Shown here piece by piece: positions 194 to 63,774 of a stretch of DNA of 64,000 bases. The stretch comes from Adhaeribacter terreus (GTDB lineage Bacteria > Bacteroidota > Bacteroidia > Cytophagales > Hymenobacteraceae), in NCBI RefSeq assembly GCF_042657365.1, contig NZ_JBHSKT010000002.1, positions 454,034-518,033 of the forward strand, read 5' to 3'. The notes under the pieces are model-generated. The model did no database searches and had not been told where the DNA came from. It saw only the letters and a list, made by a program, of their open reading frames with translations. Every line of letters begins with the position of its first letter. Within the stretch, counting starts at the first letter, position 1. The position numbers and the translations under genes are program-made.

Positions 194-369
194 GCATTTG
201 CCTTGTCATATATCTGAAGGCCGGAAAACGGTAGGGTTTTGGTACCAAAAACTGTAGCGTTTTCCAAATCTTTCATCTACACTATATATAATAGAGTAGA
301 TTCTTAACCAAACAAATTTTCATCTGCCGGAAAAAGCTTTCGAGCCTAACCCGACGCGCTTGCCGAAAC

Positions 370-1323
370 ATGAAACCGAATTGCCTCATTGTCGACCTGA
401 TGCACCCCAGTATAATCGATTTGCTGGAAGAAGCCGGTTTCACTGTTTCATATCGCCCGGAAATTAAACCCGACGAGGTAAAAGCAGCGCTGAAAGGATT
501 CCGGGTGTTGATGGTCCGTAGTAAGCTACACATTACGGAAGAACTTCTTTCGGAAGCCGATGAACTGCAGATCATAGCACGCGCCGGCGCCGGCGTAGAC
601 AACATAGATGAAGCCGCGCTCATTCGGCGCAACATTCAGTTGGTAAATGCACCCGAAGGCAATCGCGACGCGGTAGGGGAGTTTACCGTGGGTTTGTTGC
701 TCGCACTGTTCCGGAACATTGTGAAAGCCGACAAGGAAGTAAGAGAACATATTTGGCACCGTGAGGAGAATCGCGGGGAAGAGATCTTTGGTAAGACAAT
801 CGGTATAATTGGCTACGGCAACATGGGGAAAGCGTTCGCGCGTTGTTTGTTGGGGTTCAACTGCCGGGTAATTGCCAACGATACCTTCAACGATGCAATT
901 TTTGATGAAAATGCGGAGCGGGTTTCCCTCTCCGAAATTTTTGAGCAGGCCGATGTAGTGAGTTTTCATATTCCCTACACGCCCGAAAATTACCATTTTG
1001 CTAACGCTGCATTCTTCAGGAGTTTTAGAAAAAAGGTATGGGTATTAAGCACGGCAAGAGGCGAAATAATGGATTATACGGCATTAGTGGCTGGTTTACA
1101 GGCCGGGCGTTTGAAAGGCGCAGCCTTAGACGTGCTTGAGAATGAAAAACTTGGCACGTTGAACGCCCGGCAACAGGTAAATTTTGAATTCCTGGCCCAG
1201 GCCCCCAACGTAATTCTTACCCCGCATATTGCCGGATGGACGCACCAATCCTATCAGAAAATCAATGAAGTTTTGGTACAAAAGATTAAAGCTATTCATT
1301 ATCAGAAAGATGGCCTACGCTGA
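370..1323 (+). CDS. D-isomer specific 2-hydroxyacid dehydrogenase (phosphoglycerate dehydrogenase-like), NAD-binding
   Basis: 317-aa ORF with ARAGAGVDNID and GIIGYGNMG Rossmann motif, typical of the D-2-hydroxyacid dehydrogenase family. Confidence 0.8.
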   Translation: MKPNCLIVDLMHPSIIDLLEEAGFTVSYRPEIKPDEVKAALKGFRVLMVRSKLHITEELLSEADELQIIARAGAGVDNIDEAALIRRNIQLVNAPEGNRDAVGEFTVGLLLALFRNIVKADKEVREHIWHREENRGEEIFGKTIGIIGYGNMGKAFARCLLGFNCRVIANDTFNDAIFDENAERVSLSEIFEQADVVSFHIPYTPENYHFANAAFFRSFRKKVWVLSTARGEIMDYTALVAGLQAGRLKGAALDVLENEKLGTLNARQQVNFEFLAQAPNVILTPHIAGWTHQSYQKINEVLVQKIKAIHYQKDGLR

Positions 1324-1429
1324 TCAAGAAAAAAAGGTTTAAGATTTTGCTAGTTATTTTTTTAAGATGTACCTTTAATGCTTTGAATTATACCCACTAC
1401 CAATAATTTCATTCTTTTTTTAACCCAGT

Positions 1430-4400
1430 ATGATGCGAAAACTTTTACTACTGTTCGCTTTCTTAGGTTTCACGTATGGGGCGGCACTCGCCCAAACGGG
1501 TAAACTGGCCGGAAAGCTGATTGACAAAACAACCCGCGAGCCGATTCCTTTCGGTAACGTTGTTGTGAAGCTGAATGGTGCGCAGAAAGGCTATGGCCAG
1601 ACTGATATCAACGGTTTTTATTCTATTTCTCCGCTTACGCCGGGTGCTTACACCGTTGAGGTACCAAACGTTGGTTACATTACCAGAGTTATCAGCGGGG
1701 TAGAGGTAACGGTAGATAAAACTACCAGCCTTAACATTGAGCTTTCTCAAAACGTGCAGCAACTGAACGAAGTTGAGATCACTGCTTACGAAGTTCCGAT
1801 TATCGGTCCTGAAAAAGTTGGTCAGACCCTGACCAAAGAGCAGATCATGAAAGTTTCTACCCGCGAAGTAACCACGCTCGTACAAACTGCTTCCAACGTA
1901 GGTTCAACCGATGATGGCAAAGCTGTAAGTATCAAAGGGCAGCGTCCTTCAGGTACTGCTTACTATGTGAATGGTGTAAAGCAGTTAGTAGCACCAAACC
2001 TGCCAACCAGTGCCATTGCCCAGATGACGGTAATTTCTGGAGGTGTGCCTGCTCAATACGGTGACCAGACCGGTGGTGTTGTAAACATTACAACAACTGC
2101 CCCATCCAGCAAATTTATGGGTGGAATTGAAGCTGAAACTTCTGCTCCATTTGACAAATACCATAACAACCTGGTTAACTTTAACCTGACCGGTCCGCTT
2201 ATTCAGAAGAAAAGCGTAGATACTACAGATTTTACAAGCAACCGTACTATCCTGGGGTTCTTCCTGGCAGGTCAGTATCAGGGTTCCCGCGACGATAACC
2301 CATCTGCTCAAGGTGTCTATACATTAAAAGATGATGTTAAAGCCCGCCTGGAAGATAAACCATTAGTAGCCGATCCGCAGGGTGGCTATACTTACACGGC
2401 TCAAACTTTAACGCTGAACGACTTTGAAAAAGGTAAACTGCGTCCGAATGTAAAGAACAACATCATTTCGGTTAACACTTCCCTGGAATTCCAGCCGAAA
2501 GATAATATGATGTTCAGCTTCGGTGGTAATATCAACCACTCACAGCGTGATCTGTATCAATTAGGATATTCTGTTTTCAATTCAGACAACAACCCGGAGC
2601 AACGCCTCGATAACTGGATGGCTTATGCCCGTTTTACGCAGAACTTTAAAGATGCTGTTGGTGACTCTTCTGCTAATCCGCTTAAAAATGCTTATTATCA
2701 GATCCAGGTCGACTACTCTAAATATGACCGCACAATTCAAAACAAGCGTCTGAAAGATAATATCTGGCGTTATGGATACTTGGGTAAATTCGATCAGACT
2801 GTTGAAGCGTTCTATTCACCAGGCACGGTTCGTGTAAAAAGTAATCCGAACGATCCGAACGATACTACTACTACTGTTTACCGCGATGCAATGATTGATC
2901 GTGGCGATATCAGCACTGGTGTAACTTTCTCAAGAGATGAAAACTCTAATCCGATTACTGCGAATTATACCAAGCAGATAATTGATGACCGTTTCGAAGC
3001 GGGTAACGAAATTTCGAACCTGATCGAACTTCAGATCCTGGGTGGTTTGCTGAATGGTCAGAACCCGTTCCCGGTTTATTCTATGTATTCAAACGTTGGT
3101 ACAATGTACTCAACGTATCAATTACTGAACAACGACCAGTTCCGTTTATCGGCTCTGGGTTCTGCTGAGTGGGGTAAACATACTTTTAAACTTGGTTTTG
3201 AATTCGAACAGCGCGTAGAAACGAACTATGGCGTAAATGCAAGCGGCCTGTGGAACTGGAGCCGTGGTTTATTAAGCACCGATATGAACGGTCTTGATAA
3301 AGATAATTACATTGTTTCTACCCGCGACGTTGACGGCATTGAGCAGACCTTCATTGATTTTGCTTATAAGCCAAATGCTACTCAGAGCACTTTCTCTCAA
3401 AATCTGCGCAAGAAATTAGGTCTTGCTGCAAACCAACCTATTAATATAGATGCAGTAAGCCCGGAAGATCTTTCAACAAGCATGTTCTCTGCCGATGAAC
3501 TGATTACGCCAGGTTTAGTAAGCTACCAGGGTTATACTTACGATGGTAAACGTTCTACCAAGAAAGTTGCCTTCAACGATTATTTCTCCGATGTAGCTAA
3601 CCGTCCGCAGGATGCTGTTCGTCCTATTTATACCGCAGCTTTCATCGAAGATAAATTCCAGATCGAAGACCTGACTTTACGTGCAGGTGTTCGTGTTGAC
3701 CGTTTCGATGCAAACCAGAAAGTATTAAAAGACCCTTATACATTAGTTGAAACGCTTAAAGCCGGAAATGTACGTGACCTGCGTTTTGCAGATAACTATG
3801 CTATTCCGTCTAACATCGGCGACGACTATGTAGTTTATGTAAACAAAAACTCTGCTGATTTCCAGCAGAACCAGACATCTGCCTCTAACTTTGGTGTGGT
3901 AGGTTACCGCAAAGGCGATGTATTTTATGATGTGAACGGAACCCCAACCGATAACCTAGCAGAAATTCAGAAGAATGGTACTTTCCCACTGTTCGATCCT
4001 GCATTGCAAGGTACAGTAGGCTCTGAATATTTACCAGACCGTCGTTTATCAGTTAGAGCATTTAAAGATTATGAGCCGCAGTTCGTTATTATGCCGCGTA
4101 TCTCATTCTCTTTCCCGATCTCGGAAGATGCTCTTTTCTTTGCCCATTACGACATTACTTCCCAGCGTCCGGAACGTAACGGTACCCTGCCAAGCGATTA
4201 TTACTTCCTGCTTGGTTCAATTAACGCCCGGAACGAAATTAACAACCCGGATCTGAAACCACAGAAGAAAATTGACTACGAAGTTGGTTTTGAGCAGCGT
4301 TTAACCCGCTCTTCCGGCTTAACAATTTCAGCTTTCTACTCTGAGAACCGCGATCAGATCTCTTTCCGGAAATACACCGGTGCTTTCCCGCAGGATTATA

Positions 4401-5146
4401 TTACTTTCAGCAACCTCGATTTTGGTGTTGTGAAAGGTATGACACTGGAGTATGACCTGAGAAGAACCAAAAATGTTTCGATGAATGCCAGCTATACCCT
4501 GCAGTTTGCAAAAGGTACAGGTTCAAGCGCAACATCAGGTTACAACCTGGTAAGCCAGGGCCAGCCAAACCTGCGTACGCCGATTCCATTAGATTTCGAT
4601 CAGCGTCATAACTTTAAAGTGAACTTCGACTTCCGTTTCAGAGATAACGAAGGCCCGGTATTGTTCGACAACAAAATCTTCCAGAATGCCGGTATCAACT
4701 TTAACCTGAATGCTGCATCAGGAACTCCATATTCGCGTCAGGCCAATATCACCAACTTTATCAACGCCATTGGTCGTCCGGTACTGGAAGGTAGCCTGAA
4801 CGGATCTAACCTGCCTGCTAACTTCCGGGTAGGTCTGCGTCTGGATAAAGACTTTAATATTAAAGGAAGCGAAGACGGAAAATCTTTTGTAAAATCTCTG
4901 AACGTTTATTTCCGGGTGCAGAACCTGTTTAACACTATGAATGTGTTGAATGTGTACCGTTACACTGGTTCTGCATCTGATGATGGTTATCTGGATACAT
5001 ACCGCGAGAAATTTGGTAGCGAAGCAAATCAGTCTCTGATGGATCTTTACACGATTCGCTTACTGAATGGTGATAATAATACAAGTAACCCATCTAACTA
5101 TTCATTACCACGCCGTGCCCAGATCGGCTGTGTGATTTCATTCTAA
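1430..5146 (+). CDS. TonB-dependent-receptor-like outer membrane beta-barrel with N-terminal carboxypeptidase-regulatory-like domain and plug
   Basis: 1238-aa ORF with a signal peptide and a CarbopepD_reg-like N-terminus (DINGFYSISPLTPGAYTVEV). It has a plug-like region and a long beta-rich body ending in a C-terminal Phe. Confidence 0.65.
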   Translation: MMRKLLLLFAFLGFTYGAALAQTGKLAGKLIDKTTREPIPFGNVVVKLNGAQKGYGQTDINGFYSISPLTPGAYTVEVPNVGYITRVISGVEVTVDKTTSLNIELSQNVQQLNEVEITAYEVPIIGPEKVGQTLTKEQIMKVSTREVTTLVQTASNVGSTDDGKAVSIKGQRPSGTAYYVNGVKQLVAPNLPTSAIAQMTVISGGVPAQYGDQTGGVVNITTTAPSSKFMGGIEAETSAPFDKYHNNLVNFNLTGPLIQKKSVDTTDFTSNRTILGFFLAGQYQGSRDDNPSAQGVYTLKDDVKARLEDKPLVADPQGGYTYTAQTLTLNDFEKGKLRPNVKNNIISVNTSLEFQPKDNMMFSFGGNINHSQRDLYQLGYSVFNSDNNPEQRLDNWMAYARFTQNFKDAVGDSSANPLKNAYYQIQVDYSKYDRTIQNKRLKDNIWRYGYLGKFDQTVEAFYSPGTVRVKSNPNDPNDTTTTVYRDAMIDRGDISTGVTFSRDENSNPITANYTKQIIDDRFEAGNEISNLIELQILGGLLNGQNPFPVYSMYSNVGTMYSTYQLLNNDQFRLSALGSAEWGKHTFKLGFEFEQRVETNYGVNASGLWNWSRGLLSTDMNGLDKDNYIVSTRDVDGIEQTFIDFAYKPNATQSTFSQNLRKKLGLAANQPINIDAVSPEDLSTSMFSADELITPGLVSYQGYTYDGKRSTKKVAFNDYFSDVANRPQDAVRPIYTAAFIEDKFQIEDLTLRAGVRVDRFDANQKVLKDPYTLVETLKAGNVRDLRFADNYAIPSNIGDDYVVYVNKNSADFQQNQTSASNFGVVGYRKGDVFYDVNGTPTDNLAEIQKNGTFPLFDPALQGTVGSEYLPDRRLSVRAFKDYEPQFVIMPRISFSFPISEDALFFAHYDITSQRPERNGTLPSDYYFLLGSINARNEINNPDLKPQKKIDYEVGFEQRLTRSSGLTISAFYSENRDQISFRKYTGAFPQDYITFSNLDFGVVKGMTLEYDLRRTKNVSMNASYTLQFAKGTGSSATSGYNLVSQGQPNLRTPIPLDFDQRHNFKVNFDFRFRDNEGPVLFDNKIFQNAGINFNLNAASGTPYSRQANITNFINAIGRPVLEGSLNGSNLPANFRVGLRLDKDFNIKGSEDGKSFVKSLNVYFRVQNLFNTMNVLNVYRYTGSASDDGYLDTYREKFGSEANQSLMDLYTIRLLNGDNNTSNPSNYSLPRRAQIGCVISF

Positions 5147-5172
5147 TACTGTAATTTTTATATCTGAGATAT

Positions 5173-8100
5173 ATGCGTAATAAACAACTATCTGGAATGC
5201 TGCTGGCACTAGGCCTAAGCTGCGCGCTGAATGTTTCGGCGCGTGAGCGGGTTGATGTTCCGGCAAATGCCGGAGGCCAGAAAAACGGCGGAAGAAATAA
5301 TAAAATTGCGGCGGCCTGCCTTACCAGCTCGTCAACTTCCTCGCTGGATATAAATAACGTTCGCGCCATGGTTCTGAATGGTGGCGATATGTGGTGGAAC
5401 CTTTCAGATCCGCGATATGAAGTACCTAAAGTAGATGATCCGAACTTACCGAAGAGACACTCTCTTTTTGCCGGTGCTGTATGGATCGGGGGTAGAGATG
5501 CTCAGAATAACCTTTATCTGGCAGCTCAGACGTACCGCCAGGGTGCTCCTGCAGATGCGGGATACTGGCCGGGTCCACTGGATAATACCGGTAATATTGA
5601 CCAGGCAGATTGCGCTACCTGGAATTATCATGCTAAAATTGATAAAGCCGTAGTAGATAAATTCCGCGAGGATTTTGGCAAGGGATTATATAATGACAGA
5701 AATCCGGACCTGTTGCCAAAAGCGATCAGAGACTGGCCTGCAAAGAAGAATCCGCATATTACTAATACGGATATGAATCATGAGCTGGCTCCGTTTGTTG
5801 ATAAAGGCGGTCCGGCTGATGAATATAATCCTTTGGATGGTGACTATCCTGATTTCCGGGGTGACCAGGGTATCTGGTGGGTAATGAACGATGCGGGTAA
5901 CGTAAAAGAGCCGCTATCGAGCACTATTGGTTTGGAGTTACAGGTTTTGGCGTTTGCTTTCCAGACGAACAACCTGATCAACAATATGACCTTCTATAAG
6001 CAGAAGCTGATCAATAAAGGCCCTAACACCCTGGAAAATACTTACCTTGGCCAGTGGGTTGACCCGGATCTTGGTTTCTATAACGACGATTTTGTAGGCT
6101 GTGATGTTGGCCGTGGTTTAGGTATCTGCTATAACGGCGATAACGATGACGAAGGTGCAAACGGTTACGGCCTGAATCCACCTGCTATTGGTGTTGACTT
6201 CTTCCAGGGACCAACCGCGGATCCAGGCGATGGTATTGATAACGACCGTGATGGCACAATTGATGAGCCTAACGAGAAGATCATCATGTCGAGCTTTATC
6301 TATTACAACAACGACAGCAACCCGACAAACGGTAACCCAAGCAGAGCTTCTGACTTTTACAATTATCTGCAGGCGATCTGGAGAGATGGTAAACAAATTA
6401 CTTTTGGCGGCGATGGTACAAACCAATCTGCCAAGCCATATAAGTTTATGTTCTCTGACGATACCGACCCTAAAGGATACGGCTTCAGCAACCCTCCAGG
6501 AAGCGAGCAACCTGCATTTAACTGGTCTGAAACTAAAACGCAGGCTTCCGGCCAAAGCTCTAATACCCCTGCTGACCGTCGTTTCCTGCAATCTGCCGGA
6601 CCGTTTACTTTGGATCAAGGAGCAGTTAACGAACTTACCATTGGTGTTGTTTGGGCGCGTGCTAATTCAGGTGGTGCCAAAGGCTCTTTAGGTCTCCTGA
6701 AAAATGCTGATGACATTGCACAAAGCCTTTTCGATAACGACTTTAAATTACCACAAGGCCCGAATGCTCCTGAACTTGCCATTTCAGAGTTAGATCAGCA
6801 GTTAGTGCTTACCCTGATTCCGCAGAAGTTCCTTACTTCTAACGACGATCAGGTTACAACGGAAACTTATTTTGAGAAGAACCAGACCTTAGAAGCAAAC
6901 GGCGCTAAAGATCCTTTCTATCGTTTTGAAGGTTATAAAGTTTACCAGCTAAAAGATCCTACTGTAACTTCTTCTGAACTGAATAACCCTGACCGTGCCC
7001 GTTTAGTAGCCCAGGCTGACCTGAAAAACGGCGTTACTGAAATCGTTAACCGTGAGTTTGATGCTGACATTAACGACTTTAAGAGTGTACTAAAGGTACG
7101 TGGTGCAGATAACGGTTTATTCCACACCATCAACGTAACTACAGACCAGTTCGCTACCGGTAACGACAGAATCGTGAACTTCAAGTCTTACCATTTCATG
7201 GTTGTTGCTTATGCTTACAATGGTGACTCTGTTAACGTAAATGATAAATATCTGGAAGGACGCGTTACGAGCTCTGGTACCGGTATTCCTCACAAGCCAC
7301 AGGTTGAAAATGGTGGTACTTTGTTAACCGCTGCTTATGGTACTGCTGCTGGTATTACCCGTATTTTTGGTGTAGGTAATGGCGGTAATGTACTTGAAAT
7401 TATGCCTGAAGATGAGCAGGACATTGTACGGAACAACAGCAAGCAGAGAATAACTTACCAGGGTGGTCATGCGCCATTCACGGTTAAAGTTTACGATCCT
7501 AAGAAAGTTGTAGGCGGTGACTTTACCGTTAAAATGTCGAGCAGACTGGTATACGCTAAATCTTCTGCATCAGGCAAACTGAACCTGAACGATACAATTC
7601 TGGCAACCGGTAACTTTACCCGTCCGGATGCTTATGACGCTACTAATTTCCCGAATACATTATCTTATCCACAGGTTCCGGGCCGCGCTATTGTGCGGAG
7701 AATTGTAAGTGTAGAACCTCTTTTAGGTGGTACAACTGCTGGCGATTCCCTGGTTACGCTGGATATTGAAATGCTGAATGACCACCTGAACGGACGATTT
7801 ACAGTGCAGATCGATGAGAACAAACTTACCGGTACAGCGCCAAATCAGACTGTGGTATTCTTCGGTTATAAAACTGAGACCAGACCATTCCGCTCTTTGA
7901 ATTCTAATTTTACTGCTGTTGCATCTGAATATGTACAGAATGACTTATGGAAAATTACGAAACCAGGCGGGGAAACGCTTTTCGCTGACAAGCCGGTGAG
8001 TATTTTCAATGAGCAACTGGTACCTGAATTCGGTATTGCACTTGAATTTAAGCATGCAACTGACCCAGGTTACCTTGTTAATGCAAATTCACTGAATGGA

Positions 8101-9360
8101 TTCCAGGGAGCTTCTTTAACGTTTGCTTCTGCTCCAAGATGGCTGGAAGGCGTTTCGAATGGTAGCACGGCAGAGAACCCGACTTTCCAGCCTTGGTTAG
8201 TAGCTAAAAAGACTACTACAGTTCCTTCAGAAGTTGATGGTATTGATCCGAACTATGTGTATATGAACGTGTTGAATGGAACCTGGGCACCATATGGCGT
8301 TACTGCTATTCTTCCTGGTCCTGCATATAACGCGGCAAGTGCAACTAACCGGAAAATCTCTGATCTTCAGAATGTGGATGTTGTATTTACAAGCGATAAA
8401 TCTAAATGGACGCGGGTAGTTGTGTTGCAAGGTAATTCCGGTGCAAGCTCTGCATTTGAACTGACCAAGAGAGGTAGCACAGCTCAGTCTGTAGACGTGA
8501 ATGGTAATCCGGATGCTAATGCTCCAAGCCCGACCGGTATGGGTTGGTTCCCTGGTTATGCGATTGACCTGGACCGTGGTGTTCGTCTGAACATGATGTT
8601 CTCGGAATTTGCTACGCAGGATGGTAAAGGCAGTGACCTGATCTGGGATCCTACTTCAGATATTGATGGCGGCAGAAACTTTATTTACGTTATGACAACC
8701 CGTTATGATGAAGGTGCACAGCTTGCCAGAGATTTCGACCAGATCATTGCACGTTACCCTAACCAGGCTGCGCAATTCCAGTCGGCTACGCAGAGCGCTA
8801 TTTTTACCAATGCAATGTGGGTTGGCTATCCGCGCTTAGCGAAGGGTGCTACTAAACTGGCCAGCGATGCCCGCGTTAAGCTTCGTGTGAATCGTTACTT
8901 TACATCTTATACAACTGATGAGCAGTATAATGTAACCAGCGATAATAAACCGACTACCTATAAACGTAACTTTAACCCTGAATATAACTTCTCTACCAAT
9001 AGCCTGGTGCCACAAGTGGAACAAACCAGCATTGCGAAAAGTGGTCTTGACCTGATCCGTGTAGTACCTAACCCTTACTATGCTTACTCACAATACGAGC
9101 AGCGCCAGCTGGACAATATTGTGAAGATCACCAACCTGCCGCGCAAATGTAAGATCACGATCTATACAGTAAACGGTACTCTGGTTAGAAGTTACAACAA
9201 AGATGATTCTAAGACTTTCTTAGACTGGAACCTGAAAAATGATAACAACTTACCGATCGCTTCGGGTGTGTATATCATTCATGTGGATGCTGGCAACATT
9301 GGCAGCAAAGTGGTGAAATGGTTCGGTATAATGAGACCGATAGATCTAGAGTCGTTTTAA
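5173..9360 (+). CDS. Large secreted protein with type IX secretion C-terminal sorting domain (CTD); possible PorU-like given downstream PorV-like gene
   Basis: 1395-aa ORF with a signal peptide. C-terminus VVPNPYYAY...KITIYTVNGTLV...GVYIIHVDAG...KVVKWFGIM matches the T9SS CTD pattern. A DNDRDGTIDEPNE Ca-binding-like motif is present. Confidence 0.65.
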   Translation: MRNKQLSGMLLALGLSCALNVSARERVDVPANAGGQKNGGRNNKIAAACLTSSSTSSLDINNVRAMVLNGGDMWWNLSDPRYEVPKVDDPNLPKRHSLFAGAVWIGGRDAQNNLYLAAQTYRQGAPADAGYWPGPLDNTGNIDQADCATWNYHAKIDKAVVDKFREDFGKGLYNDRNPDLLPKAIRDWPAKKNPHITNTDMNHELAPFVDKGGPADEYNPLDGDYPDFRGDQGIWWVMNDAGNVKEPLSSTIGLELQVLAFAFQTNNLINNMTFYKQKLINKGPNTLENTYLGQWVDPDLGFYNDDFVGCDVGRGLGICYNGDNDDEGANGYGLNPPAIGVDFFQGPTADPGDGIDNDRDGTIDEPNEKIIMSSFIYYNNDSNPTNGNPSRASDFYNYLQAIWRDGKQITFGGDGTNQSAKPYKFMFSDDTDPKGYGFSNPPGSEQPAFNWSETKTQASGQSSNTPADRRFLQSAGPFTLDQGAVNELTIGVVWARANSGGAKGSLGLLKNADDIAQSLFDNDFKLPQGPNAPELAISELDQQLVLTLIPQKFLTSNDDQVTTETYFEKNQTLEANGAKDPFYRFEGYKVYQLKDPTVTSSELNNPDRARLVAQADLKNGVTEIVNREFDADINDFKSVLKVRGADNGLFHTINVTTDQFATGNDRIVNFKSYHFMVVAYAYNGDSVNVNDKYLEGRVTSSGTGIPHKPQVENGGTLLTAAYGTAAGITRIFGVGNGGNVLEIMPEDEQDIVRNNSKQRITYQGGHAPFTVKVYDPKKVVGGDFTVKMSSRLVYAKSSASGKLNLNDTILATGNFTRPDAYDATNFPNTLSYPQVPGRAIVRRIVSVEPLLGGTTAGDSLVTLDIEMLNDHLNGRFTVQIDENKLTGTAPNQTVVFFGYKTETRPFRSLNSNFTAVASEYVQNDLWKITKPGGETLFADKPVSIFNEQLVPEFGIALEFKHATDPGYLVNANSLNGFQGASLTFASAPRWLEGVSNGSTAENPTFQPWLVAKKTTTVPSEVDGIDPNYVYMNVLNGTWAPYGVTAILPGPAYNAASATNRKISDLQNVDVVFTSDKSKWTRVVVLQGNSGASSAFELTKRGSTAQSVDVNGNPDANAPSPTGMGWFPGYAIDLDRGVRLNMMFSEFATQDGKGSDLIWDPTSDIDGGRNFIYVMTTRYDEGAQLARDFDQIIARYPNQAAQFQSATQSAIFTNAMWVGYPRLAKGATKLASDARVKLRVNRYFTSYTTDEQYNVTSDNKPTTYKRNFNPEYNFSTNSLVPQVEQTSIAKSGLDLIRVVPNPYYAYSQYEQRQLDNIVKITNLPRKCKITIYTVNGTLVRSYNKDDSKTFLDWNLKNDNNLPIASGVYIIHVDAGNIGSKVVKWFGIMRPIDLESF

Positions 9361-9379
9361 TTAATTGCGGAGAATAGAA

Positions 9380-10435: not shown

Positions 10436-10461
10436 TTTAAAAATTTTACTACCTTTACAAA

Positions 10462-10499
10462 AGAACGGTTAGCGCAGGCATAACCGTTCTTTTGTTTTT
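10462..10499 (+). terminator. Rho-independent terminator after PorV-like gene
   Basis: Stem AGAACGGTT / AACCGTTCT with an 11-nt loop, followed by TTTTGTTTTT. Confidence 0.5.
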
Positions 10500-10524
10500 A
10501 AACCCGATTAAAAAAGATAAAGTA

Positions 10525-10998
10525 ATGGCAAACGTTTCTTATTACACCCCGGAAGGACTGCAGAAACTAAAAGATGAACTGGCGGAACTGAAAGTAAAAG
10601 GCCGGTCTGACATAGCGAAGCAACTTGCTGAAGCTCGTGATAAAGGTGATTTAAGTGAAAATGCCGAATACGATGCTGCTAAAGATGCGCAGGGCCACCT
10701 GGAACTTAAGATTGCAAAACTGGAAGAAGTGATCGGTAATGCCCGGTTGATAGATGATTCGAACCTGGACCTGAGCAAAGCTCTGATCCTCTCTAAAGTA
10801 AAGATCAAGAACCTGAACAATAATATGGTGCTGGATTATACTTTGGTTTCGGAAGAGGAAGCGAACCTGGCAACCGGCCGTATTTCGGTGAAATCGCCGA
10901 TCGGGAAAGGCTTGCTGGGAAAAGAAGTAGGGGATGTGGCGGAAATAACGGTTCCGGCGGGTAAGCTTCGTTTTGAGATCCTGGAAATTTCGCGTTAA
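10525..10998 (+). CDS. greA: Transcription elongation factor GreA
   Basis: MANVSYYTPEGLQKLKDELAELK...GDLSENAEYDAAKDAQ is a GreA hallmark. The start is placed at the ATG after the upstream terminator. Confidence 0.85.
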   Translation: MANVSYYTPEGLQKLKDELAELKVKGRSDIAKQLAEARDKGDLSENAEYDAAKDAQGHLELKIAKLEEVIGNARLIDDSNLDLSKALILSKVKIKNLNNNMVLDYTLVSEEEANLATGRISVKSPIGKGLLGKEVGDVAEITVPAGKLRFEILEISR

Positions 10999-11016
10999 TA
11001 CTTTTTATATTAGTTT

Positions 11017-53850: not shown

Positions 53851-54063
53851 ATTCTGCCGGAATGAGTTTTTAGACCCCAAAGCATAGCGTTTTTCTTTCA
53901 GCTAAAATATAATGCAGCAATGGTACAATACAGTTGAAAAGCTATTAAGCAGTTTCGACTTTTTCCATGCTTTTGCCTACCGTTTTTGTAGCTCAATGCG
54001 GTAATTTATTTTGGAATGATCTGTAGTAAAGGAAGCTTGCCTTTGACTTTGGTAACGCAGCCG

Positions 54064-54864: not shown

Positions 54865-55276
54865 AAAATCTAAATAAACTTCCGTCCCAAAATTACCCGG
54901 CAGCAAAGCGGTTTTGGGTAACTATTAGCACGCTGGAATATTGAACTCAAAATTAGTTTTTCTAACTGAAAGGATAGCGTTTTTCTGCTGTTTTATAGTT
55001 TATTGTGTTGTTATTGTTTTTGCCAATTGGTTCTTGAACAACATTGTTCCTGAGGTAATTACTTTTTTGGGTGAAAACCATAGCGTTTTATTTTCGAAAT
55101 ATAACTTTCCATTGAATTTCGAAACGTGCTTTTCGGGTAAAGCACTTGAACTGTTTAGCGAAAAACAGGCTTTTCAACTTCTTAAAGCGTATAGAAAATG
55201 GCTGAATTATGCCCGGCTAACTGCTTCAGGTTTTTATGAAAAGCCGGATTTAACCATCATTTCAAGCCGCAAGACC

Positions 55277-57718
55277 ATGCATTATATCAAGTTTTTGAAT
55301 GAAATAGGGCTGAAAGATCTGGAAGTTGTTGGCGGAAAGAATGCGTCTTTGGGTGAAATGTTCAACCAGCTCGCGCCGGCCGGAATAAACGTGCCCGATG
55401 GTTTTGCAACCACTTCCCGCGCATACTGGGAATTTCTGGAGCAGAACGAGCTAAGTGAACCTCTAGCGCAGATTTTAGCAAAACTCGATCAGGTGAATTT
55501 CAGCAATTTGGCTACTGTGGGAAAACAGGCCCGCGAACTGCTTTTGAACTGTATTCTGCCCGATAATATCAGCGATGCGATTCGAAAAGGCTATGCTTAT
55601 CTGCAGAAAAACTATGGTCCGGATTTTACGCTTGCCGTACGCAGCAGCGCCACCGCCGAAGATCTGCCAAATGCCAGTTTTGCGGGTCTGCAGGAATCTT
55701 TTCTGAACGTTCGGGGCATTGAAAATCTGCTGCAGGCTTGCCATTATTGTTACGTTTCACTGTTTACCGACCGGGCCATAAAATACCGTGTCGATAATGG
55801 TTTTGACCACATTAAAGTGGCGCTTTCCATTGGCGTGCAACTCATGGTGCGTTCCGATCTGGCAAGTTCCGGCGTTATTTTTACCCTCGATCCGGATACC
55901 GGTTTTGAAAATATCGTTTTGATATCGGGTTCCTGGGGCTTGGGAGAAAACGTGGTGCAAGGCCACGTAAATGCCGATGAATTTATGGTTTTCAAATCGA
56001 TGCTTGGCATAGCGAAACAACCCATCATTTCTAGAAAACTGGGCAGCAAATCCAAAACCATGGTATATGCCGATGTGCAGGGAAATACGCTTTTTCATCC
56101 TGCCGAAGCTATTGTAAACCAAGTTACTTCTTCAGAAAAACGGGAACAATTCTGTCTTTCGGATGAAGAAGTAATGAAGCTGGCGGAATGGGCTTGCCTG
56201 ATTGAAAAACACTATGGCCGGCCAATGGACCTGGAGTGGGCGAAAGACGGCAAAACAAACCAGCTTTTTATGGTGCAGGCGCGGCCGGAAACGGTGCAGA
56301 GCAAGCAAAAAAACAAAGTTGAATTTGTACAATACAAACTGCAGGATAAGGGGCAACTTTTATGCAAAGGTATAGGGCTGAGCAACAAGATCGTGAGCGG
56401 AACAGCCCGGATCTTACATGCGCCTTCGGAAATCAATAAACTGCAACAAGGTGAAGTGCTGGTAACGCATAAAACCGACCCCGACTGGGACCCGATCCTG
56501 AAAAAAGCCACGGCCATAATAACTGATCAGGGCGGAAGAACTAGCCATGCGGCTATTGTGGCCCGTGAAGTAGGAGCGGTTGCAGTGGTTGGCTGCGGAA
56601 ATGCCACGCAAAGTATTCAGGATGGACAAATTGTAACGGTAAGTACTGCCGAAAGCGAAACCGGATCTGTGTATGATGGCAAGCTGCCCTGGACCGAAAC
56701 CCGCACCGATCTGGAAACGGTAGTAAAACCGCGCACAAAAGTCATGCTTATTCTCGGCGATCCGGAACAGGCTTTCAAATATTCTTTTCTGCCGAACGAT
56801 GGCGTAGGCCTGATGCGCATGGAATTTATTGTGGCTAATACCATCCGGATTCACCCCATGGCGCTGAAGCATTTTAATAAGCTGGAAAATGCAGAAGCCC
56901 GGAAACAGATAGAAGCATTAACGCACCATTTTCCGGATAAGGAAACGTATTTTGTGCAGCAACTTGCCGAAGCCACCGCCCAGATCGCGGCCGCATTTTA
57001 CCCCAAAGATGTAATTGTGCGCATGAGCGATTTCAAAACAAACGAATACGCAAACCTGATTGGAGGAAAGCAATTTGAATTTACCGAAGCCAATCCGATG
57101 ATCGGCTTTAGGGGTGCTTCGAGGTATTACAATCCGCTTTACCAGGATGGTTTTGAGCTGGAATGCCGGGCCATGAAAAAAGTGCGGGAAGAAATGGGCC
57201 TCAACAATATCAAACTCATGATACCGTTTTGCCGCACCGAAAAAGAAGCTCTGGAAGTAATAGCCCTGATGGAAAAATTCGGGCTGAAGCGCTGCGAAAA
57301 CGGCCTGGAACTTTACATGATGGTGGAAATACCGAGCAACGCACTTTTAGCTGAAACATTTGCCAAACACTTCGACGGTTTTTCTATTGGCTCCAACGAT
57401 CTTACGCAGCTAACTTTAGGCGCCGACCGCGATTCAGAATTGCTCTGCGATATTTTCAGTCCATTCGACCCGGCGGTGCAGCAACTCATCGTGATGACGC
57501 TGGAAAAAGCTAAAAAAACGCACACCAAAACCGGCCTTTGCGGACAAGCCCCTTCCGATTATCCGGAGTATGCAAGTTTTCTGGTGCAGCATGGCATAGA
57601 CAGCGTTTCCTTTAACCCCGATGCGCTTATAAAAGGCATGAAGAATATGGTGAAAGCTGAAAAAGCACTGCATAATAAGCCGCCTTTTCCGGAGGAAGAT
57701 CATAAAATATTGGGTTGA
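55277..57718 (+). CDS. ppsA: Phosphoenolpyruvate synthase (pyruvate, water dikinase)
   Basis: VGGKNASLGEM N-terminus, phospho-His GGRTSHAAIVARE, and a C-terminal PEP-utilising domain. Start placed at MHYIKF; the upstream 112 codons of the track ORF lack homology. Confidence 0.85.
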   Translation: MHYIKFLNEIGLKDLEVVGGKNASLGEMFNQLAPAGINVPDGFATTSRAYWEFLEQNELSEPLAQILAKLDQVNFSNLATVGKQARELLLNCILPDNISDAIRKGYAYLQKNYGPDFTLAVRSSATAEDLPNASFAGLQESFLNVRGIENLLQACHYCYVSLFTDRAIKYRVDNGFDHIKVALSIGVQLMVRSDLASSGVIFTLDPDTGFENIVLISGSWGLGENVVQGHVNADEFMVFKSMLGIAKQPIISRKLGSKSKTMVYADVQGNTLFHPAEAIVNQVTSSEKREQFCLSDEEVMKLAEWACLIEKHYGRPMDLEWAKDGKTNQLFMVQARPETVQSKQKNKVEFVQYKLQDKGQLLCKGIGLSNKIVSGTARILHAPSEINKLQQGEVLVTHKTDPDWDPILKKATAIITDQGGRTSHAAIVAREVGAVAVVGCGNATQSIQDGQIVTVSTAESETGSVYDGKLPWTETRTDLETVVKPRTKVMLILGDPEQAFKYSFLPNDGVGLMRMEFIVANTIRIHPMALKHFNKLENAEARKQIEALTHHFPDKETYFVQQLAEATAQIAAAFYPKDVIVRMSDFKTNEYANLIGGKQFEFTEANPMIGFRGASRYYNPLYQDGFELECRAMKKVREEMGLNNIKLMIPFCRTEKEALEVIALMEKFGLKRCENGLELYMMVEIPSNALLAETFAKHFDGFSIGSNDLTQLTLGADRDSELLCDIFSPFDPAVQQLIVMTLEKAKKTHTKTGLCGQAPSDYPEYASFLVQHGIDSVSFNPDALIKGMKNMVKAEKALHNKPPFPEEDHKILG

Positions 57719-57816
57719 AAACGATATGGTTTTAAGCCTGAAAAGTAGGGGCCGGCGCATTGATCCACTTTTCAAACCTAAGCTTCTTTTAGTTAGAAGA
57801 TACCATTAAATTAAGA

Positions 57817-59616: not shown

Positions 59617-59896
59617 TTCAGGATCTGGTACATGGTGCCTGCATGGGGAGTTTTTGCGCATGAAACCCTATCGTTTTTTGTTTGGATTGCCCCTTTTGTG
59701 CGTGTTCAGTTGGGTAATTATTTGTTTATACGGATTAAAAATGGGCAGGAAATTTTTGTTTAATTCCGGCAATTTTGATAAATAAACCGAAGGCCAAGGC
59801 TTTACTTTTTTATGCCTAAATTATAGCGTTTTAAGAATGGGAAGCTTTTGGGGTTCGGCCGGTATTACCTGTAAATAGACAGCCACAAGGCTGAAA

Positions 59897-62401
59897 TTAC
59901 TTGAACCGCGATGCCCGGAAAAACCAGCGTTTTAGTAGTTCGGCGGTTATTGCGTAAAGCAGTACCATTCCAGTAATGGCCAGAGCTTCATAAACGTGCG
60001 CGATCGAAAGGCTGAGTAAAGGCCCCAGCGGCGAAACCGGTAACAAGACAGTGAAAGCCAACGCTAAAATTGCCGCTATTGAAAGCAGTTTCCCGGGCCG
60101 GCTTTGGAAGATCGGTTTTCGGGTTCGGATGATAAAAACAATTATGAGCTCAGTTATGACCGATTCCAGGAACCAGCCGGTCTGGAAAGCATTTTCCGGG
60201 AGTTTGAAATAATTATGCAGCGCGAAAAAGGTAGCAAAATCGAAGAAAGAACTGTGGAGGCCAAAAATCAGCATGAACCGCTGAATTAAGCTGATATTCC
60301 ATTTCAGCGGCTTGCTTAATTGTTCCTGATCTACCCGGTCGTAGGCTACGGCCAGGTAAGGAAAATCGGTGATGAGGTTGGTAAGCAGAATTTGTTTAGG
60401 AAGCATGGGCAGAAACGGCAGCAGCAGCGAAGCGCCGGCCACGCTGAACATATTGCCGAAGGTAGCGCCGGTGGTGGCAAAAATATATTTCATAGAATTT
60501 GAAAAAGATTTTCTGCCTTCATGCACCCCATCGGCCAGCACGGCAAGGTCTTTTTCCAACAATACAAAATCGGCAGCTTCTTTGGCTACATCTACGGCAT
60601 TGTTCGTGGAAATTCCGGTATCGGCGGCATGGATCGCGGCCACGTCGTTTATGCCATCTCCTAGATATGCCACCCGGAATTTAGACTTCTTCAAAGCCCG
60701 TACGATCTGCTCTTTCTGGTAAGGTTCAATTTCGGCAAAAACATCGGTCCGGACAGCTTTTACCACCAGTGCTTCCGGCGACATGCTGGTCAGTTCGGGG
60801 CCGCTTATGAGTTTTAAGGGTCTCATCCCTAGCGTTTTGGCGGCATGAATGGCTGCATAACGATTGTCGCCGGTAATGATCTTTACCTTTATGCCCATTT
60901 TCTCCAGCCGTTCTATGGAAGCAACTACGTTCTCTTTAAAGCGGTCCTGGAGGAGAATAAATCCTCTGAAAACCAGGTGTTGTTCATCTGCAACCGTGAT
61001 ATCGGCTTTAGGGGTAGTTTTGGTTGCAAGGCTCAGTACCCGAAGCCCTTCCTGGCTAAACGTTTCCAGTTTTTCCTGAAATAACCGGCGTTGCTTCTCT
61101 TCCAGCGGGTGCTGACTCCCGTTCTCGTGTTGGTAGAAGCTGCAAACTTCCAGTACATTCAGCAAGGCGCCTTTAGTGATGAGGAGATATTCCGCTTTGT
61201 GTTTAACTAAAATGGTAAGCCGTTTCCGGATAAAATCATACGGGATCTCATCAGTTTTTTCGTAACCGGCAGCATCTTGCGGCATGGCTTTAATTGCTTC
61301 ATCAATCGGATTGGTAAAACCGTTCTGAAAAGTGGCATTCAGGAAAGCAAATAACTTTACTTCAGGGGAAGATCTTCCGGCCGTATTTACCATGTCAAAG
61401 ACCTCAACCGAGCCTTCAGTAATGGTGCCGGTTTTATCGGTACAGAGCAAATTAACTTCGCCGAAATTAAAGATTGATGAAAGCCTTTTTACGATCACTT
61501 TCTTTTCCCGCATGCGCCGGGCGCCGGCCGACATGGCAAAGGTCATGATGGCGGGCAGCAGTTCGGGCGCCATACCGATGGCCAGGGCCAGAGAAAACAT
61601 GAGTGAAGTGAAAAAGGGCTTGTGAAAATAAAGGTTCGTAACTAAAATAAAAGCCGACAGCAGCACCGTGATGCGAAGTAAAAAGTAACCAAAACTTTTC
61701 AGGCCGGTTTCGAAAGCGGTAGGGGAAAACTGGGTAAGACTGTGGGCCATTTTCCCGAAAATAGTATTGCCGCCGGTGTAAATGACCAGCGCCCGGGCGG
61801 TGCCGCTCACTATACTGGTTCCCTGCCACAGGCAATTGCTTTTCTTGCTTAGCGGCGTTTCTTCGGGAAGAATAGCGGCTGCTTTGGCAACCGGAAAAGT
61901 TTCTCCCGTAAGGGTGCTTTCGTTTACGTGCAGTTCGTTGCTTTCTATAATGCGGCAATCGGCCGGGATCAGGTCGCCGGCGTTAAGGTCTACCACATCG
62001 CCGGGCACTACTTCATGCGCCGCCACGGTTACCTGTTTTCCGGCCCTTATAACCAGGTGTTTTACTTCTATGATCTGTAGCAGTTTTTCTACCGCCCGGC
62101 CGGCATGAAGCTCCTGGAGAAAGCTCAGCAGACCGGTTATGAGCAGAATGCAAAAAACGATAAGCGCATCGGAAGTTTCACCCAGAAAGACCGAGAGGAT
62201 CACAACGATTATGAGCAGCAGCATAAGCGGATTGCTGAACTGCCGGAGGAACATTTTAAACTCGCGCCGGAACCTGCTTTGGATATTGGCTCTGCTTTTT
62301 TGCGCGGCTATTCGCTGCCTGGCCATGGCGGCAGAAAGGCCTTCTGCACCGGAGTGGAGCTGTTCAAAAAGTTGCTCAATACTATCGGAAGTAAGATTCA
62401 C
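59897..62401 (-). CDS. Cation-transporting P-type ATPase (MgtA-like)
   Basis: Carries CTDKTGTIT for phosphorylation, a TGD motif and the GDGINDVAAIHAADTGIS hinge. 834 aa. Confidence 0.75.
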   Translation of the reverse strand: MNLTSDSIEQLFEQLHSGAEGLSAAMARQRIAAQKSRANIQSRFRREFKMFLRQFSNPLMLLLIIVVILSVFLGETSDALIVFCILLITGLLSFLQELHAGRAVEKLLQIIEVKHLVIRAGKQVTVAAHEVVPGDVVDLNAGDLIPADCRIIESNELHVNESTLTGETFPVAKAAAILPEETPLSKKSNCLWQGTSIVSGTARALVIYTGGNTIFGKMAHSLTQFSPTAFETGLKSFGYFLLRITVLLSAFILVTNLYFHKPFFTSLMFSLALAIGMAPELLPAIMTFAMSAGARRMREKKVIVKRLSSIFNFGEVNLLCTDKTGTITEGSVEVFDMVNTAGRSSPEVKLFAFLNATFQNGFTNPIDEAIKAMPQDAAGYEKTDEIPYDFIRKRLTILVKHKAEYLLITKGALLNVLEVCSFYQHENGSQHPLEEKQRRLFQEKLETFSQEGLRVLSLATKTTPKADITVADEQHLVFRGFILLQDRFKENVVASIERLEKMGIKVKIITGDNRYAAIHAAKTLGMRPLKLISGPELTSMSPEALVVKAVRTDVFAEIEPYQKEQIVRALKKSKFRVAYLGDGINDVAAIHAADTGISTNNAVDVAKEAADFVLLEKDLAVLADGVHEGRKSFSNSMKYIFATTGATFGNMFSVAGASLLLPFLPMLPKQILLTNLITDFPYLAVAYDRVDQEQLSKPLKWNISLIQRFMLIFGLHSSFFDFATFFALHNYFKLPENAFQTGWFLESVITELIIVFIIRTRKPIFQSRPGKLLSIAAILALAFTVLLPVSPLGPLLSLSIAHVYEALAITGMVLLYAITAELLKRWFFRASRFK

Positions 62402-62675
62402 GGCTACATAAATTTATTTATCCGGCACCTAGGGCAGGCTGTTACTTTAGAACAAACAGCGTTTCTTTTGGTTATTGGGTAATGGAATTAAATAACCTTT
62501 ATTAACTACTGCTGTCATTCAGAAAGGAACTTGTACTTCTGTGCTTTCAGCCAATAAATTTCACCGAATATTTTTGGGATGCACCAATCCGAGAAGGACA
62601 GGTTGGGTTGTATAGCTTATGACCATATTACTTGATATTGTACTTTTTTATTGAAAATCTATATCGTTTCTGCCA

Positions 62676-63683
62676 ATGGAATTACCGGAAAATATACGGG
62701 CTATGGTACTGGAAAAGCAGGGTCAGCCGCTAATTCTGAAAAAGGTTCCGGTGCCGGTGCCAACGGAGCGGCAGGTGCTTGTAAAAGTGCTGGCCTGCGG
62801 GGTTTGCCGCACCGATCTGCACGTGCTGGATGGCGAACTTACTGAGCCGAAACTCCCTTTAATTCCGGGGCATGAGATCATTGGAAAAGTGGTGCGAAAA
62901 GGTGCAGAAGTAAGCGGTTTGCAGGAAGGTGATTTTGTGGGCATTCCCTGGCTTGGTTATACCTGCGGCACCTGCAAATATTGCCTGAGGAACCAGGAGA
63001 ATCTGTGCGAAAATGCCAAATTCACCGGTTATACCCTGGATGGCGGTTATGCCGAATATACCGTTGCCGATGCGCGATATTGCTTCCCGATCGAAGCTGC
63101 GTTTGCCAATGCTTCTTCAGCGCCCTGGCTTTGCGCCGGACTAATCGGGTACCGTTCTTTTAAAATGGCGGGAGAACTAACCAAAAATTTAGGGATCTAT
63201 GGTTTTGGTGCTGCAGCGCATATCGTTATTCAGCTGGCGCTTTATCGGAAGAAAAATGTATTTGCTTTTACCCGCGACGGCGATATTGCTACTCAGAAAT
63301 TTGCCCTGAACCTGGGCGCCACCTGGGCCGGAAATTCAACTGACACGCCGCCGCAGTTGCTCGATGCCGCCATCATTTTTGCACCGGTCGGCAGCCTGGT
63401 TCCCAAAGCTCTGAAAGACATAGACAAAGGCGGAACGGTGGTTTGCGGCGGCATTCATATGAGCGATATTCCGGGTTTTCCTTAAAAAGACCTTTGGGGC
63501 GAACGCACGATCCGTTCCGTTGCCAATTTAACCCGGCAGGATGGGTTGGAGTTTCTGGAACTGGCCCCGAAAATTCCGGTAAAAACCGAAACGCATTTAT
63601 TCCCGCTTGCGCAGGCCAACGAAGCGTTGGAAGCACTCCGGAACGGCAAATTTCAGGGCGCGGCGGTGTTGGTAATGGAGTAG
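62676..63683 (+). pseudogene. Zinc-dependent alcohol dehydrogenase interrupted by an in-frame TAA stop (or sequencing error)
   Basis: GHEIIGKVV and the CGTCKYC zinc site sit upstream. The same frame continues after TAA at 63483-63485 as KDLWGERTIRSVANLTRQDG...AVLVME*. Confidence 0.6.
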
Positions 63684-63774
63684 CTTTTAAGTTTTTTTTC
63701 AGAAAAACGATAGGGTTTTTGCCTTGAAAAGTGCTGGCCTTAGGTTTTATGCTGCAAAAGCCTTTGCCATTCAC

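Follow-up and report, generated by a model that had tools for sequence, protein, structure and literature searches.

A dense, clade-specific, two-part DNA word in Adhaeribacter (Bacteroidota) and the tentative case for a self-DNA uptake tag

To our knowledge, the Pasteurellaceae, which carry uptake signal sequences (USS), and the Neisseriaceae, which carry DNA uptake sequences (DUS), are so far the only families with established sequence-specific uptake of DNA. The Haemophilus uptake motif combines a core of 9 bp with phased A/T tracts, and inverted pairs of uptake sequences are reported to act as terminators. There are 1,471 uptake sequences in H. influenzae, 65% of them within open reading frames (ORFs), and 1,892 in N. 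meningitidis, of which 34.5% are in ORFs; those located in genes are placed at poorly conserved residues (PMC2817400). Uptake sequences are non-palindromic, enriched in non-coding DNA, arranged as inverted pairs in about 10% of the cases and free of strand bias, the motif of Haemophilus being about 29 bp long (PMC1939737), and in Pasteurellaceae they are skewed to gene ends (PMC2346458). As stated in the accessible parts of two further reports, the DUS of Neisseria is bound by the pilin ComP (PMC3868556), and Riemerella columbina, a competent member of the phylum Bacteroidota, prefers its own DNA, with no uptake sequence named for it there (PMC7965970). Here we describe a short repeated element in a stretch of about 64 kb of Adhaeribacter terreus DNA (hereinafter, the window). 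It is best described as a recognition word that is carried by double-stranded DNA and specific to one Adhaeribacter clade, with the centre TA[C/G]CG flanked by T, A and T runs. Copies are maintained at a rate of about one per 1.2 kb, wherever the sequence can accommodate them; they occupy most non-coding gaps, whatever the direction of the genes, and occur in variable parts of genes as well. The element is neither a transcription signal nor an RNA structure.

The full element is directional, 29-31 bp long, and consists of A[C/G]TTTTT, 6-7 variable bases and AAA[C/G]C[C/A]TA[C/G]CGTTTT, at a nearly fixed spacing: with 10-18 nt permitted, 33 of the 43 pattern matches have [CG]TTTT and the central TA 14 nt apart. 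Bases outside the search pattern are conserved as well, namely an A preceding the T-run (37 of 39 copies) and the AAA at +13 to +15, which the search did not require (30-31 of 39). The logo derived from 189 unique copies from relatives and metagenomes agrees with this structure (gACTTTTT, a weak 'gcc' spacer and aAAAcCCTA[C/G]CGTTTT); the T-run, TA, CG and the terminal TTTT are the best-conserved positions, and no conservation is visible in this logo beyond the 31 columns. The initial annotation of the window took as its unit a 15-mer, which is real but represents only the 3' half of the element, the A[C/G]TTTTT block upstream having been overlooked. Its proposal that complementary arms are the defining trait does not hold. 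Single copies fold worse than random 31-mers (mean -1.6 and -2.6 kcal/mol for the two strands vs -3.5 kcal/mol), and they have neither hairpin potential nor excess folding energy 5' of the T-run. Given that, among the 189 copies, the AAA of the left arm is replaced by TTT in about 5% and is never G/C-rich, this arm is an A/T tract and not a pairing partner. The element is asymmetric and two-part, the palindrome being only partial and dispensable. The three A/T tracts are centred about 11 bp apart, approximately one helical turn, and such phasing, the usual signature of bent or wrapped DNA, suggests that the word is read by a protein. In about 15% of the copies, the T-run block is present on both flanks of the core; furthermore, some copies overlap such that one core doubles as the outer block of the other (224/234), and in A. 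soli three head-to-tail copies share their T-runs (L233, 2040-2135).

The exact 15-mer AAAMCSTASCGTTTT occurs five times in the window and not at all in 100 dinucleotide shuffles; if two mismatches are tolerated, the number of matches rises to 33, compared to an expectation of 2.1 +/- 1.4 and a shuffle maximum of 5. A scan with a weight matrix of 31 columns yields 52 copies at a threshold of at least 14 bits, or 54 if two variants with a spacer shorter by 1 nt are counted, that is, about 0.8 copies per kb. At least 15 bits are reached by 51 matches compared to 0.25 in Markov-1 simulations, and at least 21 bits by 41 matches compared to none, the simulations giving no match at all at 18 bits or more. 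The window counts are partly circular because the matrix was derived from the window's own copies, whereas the 15-mer counts and the counts in relatives are independent of this circularity. The motif is thus pervasive, as claimed, and far above chance, and all 29 positions listed at the outset coincide with a supported copy, 27 of them with the standard spacing (16-38 bits) and two with the short spacer (42405-42434 and 50593-50622). The early count of 25 or more copies is correct as a minimum but missed at least 20 copies, including several strong ones inside genes (13413, 14827, 23786, 36557, 38595, 48215 and 60809). The copies at 247 and 42422, originally listed as reverse, are actually forward, and the four copies regarded as weaker score 27-36 bits and are accordingly strong.

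With gene calls based on ORFs, both in the window and in metagenomic contigs, the intergenic DNA (about 7.1 kb) holds 30 copies and the coding DNA (about 56.8 kb) holds 22, which makes the former 11-fold denser and agrees with the original description of the motif as mostly intergenic. The share of copies inside ORFs is 36-42% (15 of 42 at 20 bits or more), and by our own count half of the genic copies lie within the first or last 15% of the gene. A copy is present in 22 of the 31 gaps of at least 25 bp, namely in all seven convergent gaps, five of six divergent gaps and 8 of 16 tandem gaps, and gap occupancy in Adhaeribacter terrigena is similar. Copies abut or overlap the stop codons of metH and PPDK and lie 7-15 nt past six other gene ends, whereas those at 16895, 33804 and 62641 lie 4-11 nt upstream of start codons. 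Most copies are single, the window containing one clean facing pair (11419/11466) and one loose pair (46564/46689). A regular arrangement along the chromosome was considered and rejected: the distances look irregular and include one gap of 11 kb. This motif-free stretch (265-11418) is nevertheless native, with 89% identity in A. terrigena, and encodes a receptor-like protein of 1238 aa, a protein of 1395 aa sorted by the type IX secretion system (T9SS), a PorP/SprF-like protein, GreA and HIT.

The orientation of the copies is independent of the flanking genes within the window and likewise among the 198 copies of another 70 loci, where the ratio of sense to antisense copies is 30 to 25 in tandem gaps, 17 to 24 after stop codons and 11 to 16 within genes. 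These observations bear directly on the possibility that the element is a promoter, that is, an extended box of the housekeeping sigma factor or a site of an alternative one, which appears very unlikely. The two conserved blocks at a fixed spacing and the few copies located just before start codons would fit a promoter, and the housekeeping promoter of Bacteroidetes (-33 TTTG, about 19-21 nt, -7 TAnnTTTG) likewise has two T-rich blocks, the downstream one with a TA. However, the motif differs from it in spacing, in sequence and in its indifference to gene direction, and true promoters are present separately: the tRNA-Ser gene and both S-adenosylmethionine (SAM) riboswitches of the window are each preceded by a TTTG...TAnnTTTG promoter that is shared with A. 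terrigena and A. soli, with the motif at varying distances 5' of it. The block spacing of the logo, read against the consensus values, misfits the -35/-10, -33/-7, extracytoplasmic function (ECF; AAC...CGT) and sigma-54 layouts. The initial annotation had noted that copies in convergent gaps speak against a simple promoter, which the occupancy of all such gaps bears out; its suggestion of a species-specific promoter box is abandoned in view of the random orientation and of the canonical promoters located elsewhere. The two riboswitches are divergent, one controlling metH-metF and the other the genes for a Cys/Met-PLP enzyme and homoserine dehydrogenase, and the latter riboswitch ends in a classic terminator (Table 1).

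The reading of the motif as an RNA-level element or an intrinsic terminator is also highly improbable. Many copies are located 3-15 nt past a stop codon, and the inverted doublets can form stable hairpins with U-runs behind them, but the hairpin with a U-run that characterizes intrinsic terminators is found only in the inverted doublet; single copies are unstructured, with no hairpin 5' of the T-run, and copies after stop codons occur in both orientations. No Rfam 15 family matches the motif, only the two SAM riboswitches and one tRNA of the window reaching the gathering threshold, and a search of a copy-rich stretch of 2.3 kb at E<=5 returned nothing relevant. Overall, the orientation data nearly exclude the transcription-signal readings.

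The copies are conserved between related species. In A. terrigena (about 83% DNA identity), nearly every A. terreus copy of the syntenic parts is matched by a counterpart of identical position and orientation, and in the spacer between the riboswitches the blocks of the motif are kept, whereas its variable spacer and its flanks have diverged. The conservation of positions and blocks amid diverged flanks indicates that the copies are old and actively maintained. Within the antisense copy at 13413, in a family 2 glycosyltransferase (GT2) gene, the loop encoded by the core reads ENGRGK, EKGRGE and ESSTGT in three species with no indel, and the GKKS codons, which supply the T-run block, are invariant; the core arose through amino-acid-changing substitutions in a variable protein loop. 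The copies at 23446 and 20123 also differ from the A. soli sequence without change in length, the latter position being occupied in A. soli by an unrelated sequence of equal length. Two convergent gaps present a different picture. HIT and RuvC are separated by 0 bp in A. soli, whereas A. terreus and A. terrigena have 124-127 bp there, taken up by an inverted doublet with a folding energy of -44 to -56 kcal/mol and T-runs after it; in A. terrigena both 31-bp arms are identical, spacer included. A small TonB_C gene flanked by motif copies (16886-17439 in the window; L232, 21683-22249) is present in A. terreus and A. terrigena but not in A. soli, where the SpoIIE-domain gene overlaps Wzy_C (L233, 21699-21722). 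No target-site duplication is visible at the gaps that gained motif DNA relative to A. soli, and other gains and losses occurred without change in length.

These gaps are evidence for a selfish element of the REP/REPIN (repetitive extragenic palindrome) or MITE (miniature inverted-repeat transposable element) type, in which the 31-mer would be the arm recognized by a transposase and single copies would be decayed halves. The doublet filling the HIT/RuvC gap, the TonB_C gene that forms an indel together with its two copies, and the weak residual GCC consensus of the spacer, a possible trace of common descent, all speak for such an origin. Like REP elements, the motif is species-specific, mainly extragenic, often located just past stop codons and occasionally arranged in hairpin-forming inverted doublets. 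However, doublets do not predominate, single copies being the large majority and lacking a stem-loop; more than a third of all copies are genic and were created by substitution with the frame intact; there is no turnover of positions between A. terreus and A. terrigena; typical REP families are several-fold less dense; and no RAYT transposase gene was identified in the analysed sequences. A genuine family of GC-rich hairpin repeats in the same window looks quite different. A mobile origin of the motif as a whole is hence improbable, and the REPIN- or MITE-like reading, one of the candidates named in the initial annotation, fits only the rare doublets.

The word belongs to a single Adhaeribacter subclade and not to the family, as indicated by its density in relatives, expressed as copies of at least 20 bits per 10 kb. 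This density is 6.6 in the A. terreus window, 5.1 and 5.4 at two separate loci of A. terrigena, 3.8 in a metagenomic contig (L084) whose methionine synthase falls into the same 90%-identity cluster, 1.7 in another (L081) with a methionine synthase 84% identical, and about 1.3 in A. soli; in 79 loci (1.40 Mb) of Pontibacter, Hymenobacter and other Cytophagales, there is not a single copy. A dialect of A. soli with a different core was sought as well, in 20 kb, which yielded no other word in excess. A scan of metagenomes with the exact pattern retrieved 115 stretches, many of them possibly redundant, mostly short soil contigs of 43-47% GC, which contain 117 further copies besides the 115 seed matches.

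The maintenance of about 25-30 bits of sequence every 1.2 kb or so, in any orientation, in any kind of gap and in variable parts of proteins, implies a process that operates on the DNA word as such. The known systems that behave in this way are the uptake signal sequences, and an uptake-type self-DNA tag is the likeliest of the mechanisms considered, although we put it forward only tentatively. Under this scenario, a competence system would have a DNA receptor at the cell surface with a preference for fragments that carry the word; by recombining, these fragments would both propagate the word along the chromosome and preserve it there ('molecular drive'), and facing copies would form a hairpin and additionally serve as a bidirectional terminator. 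The motif resembles the USS in several respects: a total length of about 29-31 bp, a specific core with phased A/T tracts, a density of about 0.8 copies per kb, a non-palindromic and orientation-independent character, placement in genes at variable residues and near the gene ends, occasional inverted pairs after genes, and restriction to a single lineage. Unlike the USS, the motif is far more intergenic (compare the 65% of H. influenzae copies in ORFs), its outer T-run block is as conserved as its core, and it is found in Bacteroidota, in part of one genus rather than in a whole family. In its ORF fraction and high intergenic density, the motif comes close to the DUS of N. meningitidis; however, the DUS is a short, contiguous 10-12-mer, whereas the Adhaeribacter word is long and two-part.

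The dialect-like variation of DUS among related clades has a possible parallel in the sister genus Pontibacter. Five of nine Pontibacter loci (L004, L005, L006, L007 and L010) contain the 9-mer AGGTATAGC (reverse complement GCTATACCT) at 10-21 copies per 20.8 kb, in both orientations and mostly within genes, compared to about 0.16 expected by chance; the other four (L002, L003, L008 and L018) have about two copies each, with near-matches at equivalent places. Its positions are kept among the word-rich loci, and changes between species occurred by substitution. Its density is like that of DUS or of HIP1. Two neighbouring genera, each with a hyper-abundant word of its own, are what one would expect of dialects of one underlying system, and the 9-mer may be a second dialect. 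HIP1 (GCGATCGC) of cyanobacteria, an 8-bp perfect palindrome that is largely genic and unexplained, is comparable as a hyper-abundant, lineage-specific word, although it is nearer to the Pontibacter 9-mer than to the 31-mer. This comparison raises the possibility of another genome-wide drive without DNA uptake: repair or gene conversion might be biased toward the word, or some system of modification or recombination might favour it. The same evidence of pressure at the DNA level (genic copies arising via substitution, clade-specific words) would be compatible with such a drive, as would the short, mostly genic, hyper-abundant and HIP1-like Pontibacter word, but the Adhaeribacter motif, at 29-31 bp, asymmetric and mainly intergenic, is unlike HIP1, and no repair system that recognizes so long a word is known to us; we regard this explanation as unlikely.

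Several observations weigh against an uptake tag. Both outer blocks are conserved as strongly as the centre, whereas the A/T tracts of Haemophilus are weakly conserved, and the motif is restricted below the genus level, whereas known uptake sequences are conserved across families. Gap occupancy looks more like one copy per boundary than a constant rate per base, given that 8 of 11 gaps of 50-130 bp are occupied and four gaps of 254-568 bp are empty. The intergenic copies of the window are distributed 22 to 8 between the plus and minus strands; the plus strand is G-rich and presumably the leading strand, because cumulative GC skew climbs along the whole length of the window. This strand bias was not seen again in A. 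terrigena or L084. The motif of the two convergent gaps described above arrived together with new DNA, that is, by insertion and not by substitution, and the overlapping, T-run-sharing and double-boxed copies look like cooperative binding of an intracellular protein. Finally, we found in the literature no reports of competence for Hymenobacteraceae; the genes of the window include no competence genes. Nor did the literature yield a description of an uptake-signal-type tag in Bacteroidota, or anything relevant on the motif itself or on unusual terminators of Bacteroidetes.

The main rival, possible but less probable than an uptake tag, is a binding site of a protein that is abundant inside the cell and specific to the clade, bends or wraps DNA, and has a local role at transcription-unit boundaries. 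The binding site for an abundant DNA-binding protein, a candidate named from the beginning, stays viable. Such a protein would bind as a dimer to the pseudo-palindromic core and the phased A/T tracts, as a roadblock, an insulator or an architectural mark, each copy being under ordinary selection. Three or four A/T tracts about 11 bp apart fit this proposal, the interchange of AAA and TTT in the middle tract implying readout of shape rather than of bases; the double-boxed, overlapping and head-to-tail layouts suggest cooperative binding. The near one-to-one relationship of copies to boundaries (half of the tandem gaps excepted), similar in A. terrigena, and the conservation of positions and blocks between species with the flanks free to vary are also expected for a protein site. 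Furthermore, classic hairpin terminators are no commoner in a scan of the window than in shuffles, and several of the convergent gaps with a motif copy show none. On the other side, strong genic copies with no obvious boundary role were made through amino-acid-changing substitutions, the spacing is irregular with a native 11-kb stretch empty, and the steep drop in A. soli together with the absence from Pontibacter argue against an essential architectural role; moreover, no bacterial nucleoid protein known to us has a 25-30-bit site that recurs about once per kb. A previously undescribed boundary system, in which an abundant, clade-specific DNA-wrapping protein would occupy one site at most unit boundaries, irrespective of gene orientation, and insulate or terminate where hairpin terminators look scarce, is improbable.

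The copies and other repeats of the window are listed in Table 1. The window itself has a GC content of about 45% and is about 89% coding; the methionine synthase encoded at 42638-46339 (minus strand) is 100% identical to WP_378016351.1 of A. terreus, and the proteins typical of Bacteroidota include a PorP/SprF-like protein, a CarboxypepD_reg-plus-Plug receptor and a protein with a T9SS sorting domain. Some of the weak copies of 16-20 bits may be chance resemblances in conserved coding sequence, and the one at 45979 is matched at the equivalent metH position in L081 and L083.

Table 1. Motif copies found in the window by the weight-matrix scan, and other features of the same DNA
Feature	Coordinates	Strand	Score (bits)	Remarks
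Intergenic copy	224-254	-	35.6	overlaps the 234-264 copy; orthologous copies at L232 5006 and L233 5022
Intergenic copy	234-264	+	23.5	upstream block is the T-run of the 224-254 copy
Left doublet arm, convergent gap	11419-11449	+	36.1	9 nt past HIT stop
Right doublet arm	11466-11496	-	37.3	doublet hairpin -44 to -45 kcal/mol
Copy in GT2 gene	13413-13443	-	30.5	antisense; GKKS codons form the upstream block, variable loop the core
Copy in ABC permease gene	14591-14621	+	23.1	orthologue at L232 19391
Copy in ABC permease gene	14827-14857	+	30.7
Copy between SpoIIE-domain and TonB_C genes	16895-16925	+	37.7
Copy in TonB_C/Wzy_C convergent gap	17376-17406	+	35.9
Copy in divergent gap	20123-20153	+	26.1	upstream block overlaps TTACTTTG promoter box
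Copy at 3' end of polysaccharide deacetylase gene	23319-23349	+	26.1
Copy in GT2b gene	23446-23476	-	35.5	antisense; A. soli version degenerate
Copy in GT2b gene	23786-23816	-	34.4	antisense; not present in A. soli
Double-boxed copy, GT2b-TatD gap	24473-24516		31.5 (+), 24.5 (-)	upstream block, core, mirrored block
Copy past asparaginase stop	26422-26452	-	32.7	3 nt past stop, just 5' of tRNA-Ser promoter; kept in A. soli
Copy at tRNA-Ser terminator	26619-26649	+	25.9	upstream block is the T-run of the terminator
Copy after PspA gene	29546-29576	+	35.0	followed by GC-rich hairpin repeat
Copy spanning stop codon of 723-aa gene	33068-33098	+	23.8	followed by GC-rich hairpin repeat, as at PspA
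Intergenic copy	33240-33270	-	37.3
Copy before DUF3686 gene	33804-33834	+	34.1	5 nt 5' of start codon
Copy in DUF3686-AAA gene	34184-34214	+	20.0
Copy in DUF3686-AAA gene	36557-36587	+	29.0
Copy in DUF3686-AAA gene	38595-38625	-	28.1	antisense
Copy past AhpC/TSA gene	40245-40275	+	27.4	convergent gap
Variant, spacer 1 nt shorter	42405-42434	+	21.7	46-52 nt 5' of metF start; same place in A. terrigena and L084
Copy overlapping metH stop	42610-42640	+	34.4	antisense; same place in A. terrigena and L084
Copy at metH riboswitch promoter	46564-46594	+	32.6	16 nt 5' of -33 box
Copy between divergent riboswitch promoters	46689-46719	-	35.9	blocks kept in A. terrigena, flanks diverged
Copy in Cys/Met PLP enzyme gene	48215-48245	-	28.5	C-terminal tail; TTT middle tract; kept in A. 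terrigena
Variant, spacer 1 nt shorter	50593-50622	-	27.3	convergent gap
Copy in rhodanese gene	52798-52828	+	25.1	antisense
Copy in divergent gap	53046-53076	+	31.4
Copy past UPF0114 gene stop	53864-53894	+	36.2	13 nt past stop, convergent gap
Copy in UPF0114 convergent gap	53957-53987	+	27.8	gap shared with 53864; TTT middle tract
Copy in TauE/PPDK divergent gap	54954-54984	+	29.6
Second copy in TauE/PPDK divergent gap	55060-55090	+	36.7
Copy in PPDK gene	55584-55614	-	26.3	antisense
Copy in PPDK gene	56713-56743	-	20.4	antisense
Copy overlapping PPDK stop	57717-57747	-	34.0	convergent gap with no classic terminator
Copy at ABC transporter gene start	59648-59678	+	34.1
Copy past P-type ATPase stop	59803-59833	+	29.8	63 nt past stop; antisense
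Copy in P-type ATPase gene	60809-60839	+	28.6	antisense
Copy before ADH_N gene	62641-62671	+	24.6	4 nt 5' of start codon
Double-boxed intergenic copy	63690-63733		33.7 (-), 14.6 (+)
Eight weak copies	within 20367-51612		16-20	7 genic, 1 intergenic
Weak genic copies (starts)	20367(+), 29926(-), 30475(+), 35658(-), 45979(+), 48445(-), 51582(+)			among the eight above
Weak intergenic copy (start)	50722	+		among the eight above
GC-rich hairpin repeat family	28261-28336, 29576-29724, 30126-30159, 33097-33157, 33165-33321
PLD-family nuclease and S24 repressor genes	26741-28014	-
Nuclease fragment	40532-40888	-		PD-(D/E)XK, 118 aa
Inverted repeat, metH-metF spacer	42451-42482, 42530-42561			perfect, 32 bp
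Palindrome, metH-metF spacer	42563-42598			perfect, 36 bp; contains AAACCCTA
SAM riboswitch of metH-metF	46406-46512	-
SAM riboswitch of Cys/Met-PLP enzyme and homoserine dehydrogenase genes	46838-46944	+
Classic terminator	46977-47004			ends the plus-strand riboswitch
Alcohol-dehydrogenase-like ORF	62676-63727			ADH_N domain only, 269 aa
Overlapping ORF	63443-63727			94 aa

Several other features of the window deserve mention. The GC-rich hairpin repeats (AAACACCCCTCCGGCTCCCCTCAAGGGGAGAG) form a separate family near a DUF559 gene, with one pair of 42-nt arms 98% complementary; twice such a repeat lies directly 3' of a motif copy, with 55 nt in common (29563-29617 and 33085-33139), and it may insert beside the motif. 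The inverted repeat and the palindrome of the metH-metF spacer (42451-42598) are flanked by two motif copies, and A. terrigena and L084 carry different inserts there. The PLD-family nuclease gene adjoins a gene for a repressor with helix-turn-helix (HTH) and S24-peptidase domains (LexA- or CI-like), the pair having weak, partial PADLOC matches (DrmC, MkoC, RmrA), and the PD-(D/E)XK nuclease fragment, with weak matches to the candidate PDC-S26, is located in a 1.2-kb stretch otherwise almost free of genes. A defence-system context was considered for the motif, and the PADLOC scan of neighbouring genes was uninformative; a phage origin was rejected, a scan of viral contigs having returned just 32 isolated single matches. 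No clear island or prophage was found within the analysed sequences. The ADH_N ORF looks truncated, and the 94-aa ORF that overlaps it suggests a frameshift or a pseudogene.

If the motif is an uptake tag, sequence-specific uptake would extend to Bacteroidota, as far as we could find for the first time outside Proteobacteria, and a concrete sequence would be available for testing in soil Cytophagales. Such a tag could also account for the reported preference of competent Flavobacteriaceae for their own DNA, and the motif and the Pontibacter 9-mer would become markers of recent gene flow and of foreign DNA. If, instead, the motif is a protein-bound boundary mark, it would represent an unfamiliar way of organising transcription units. 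Under both of these readings, caution is advisable in annotation, given that the two blocks mimic a promoter and that copies overlap stop and start codons, and the word is a sharp taxonomic signature that can be used for binning contigs of the Adhaeribacter clade from soil metagenomes.

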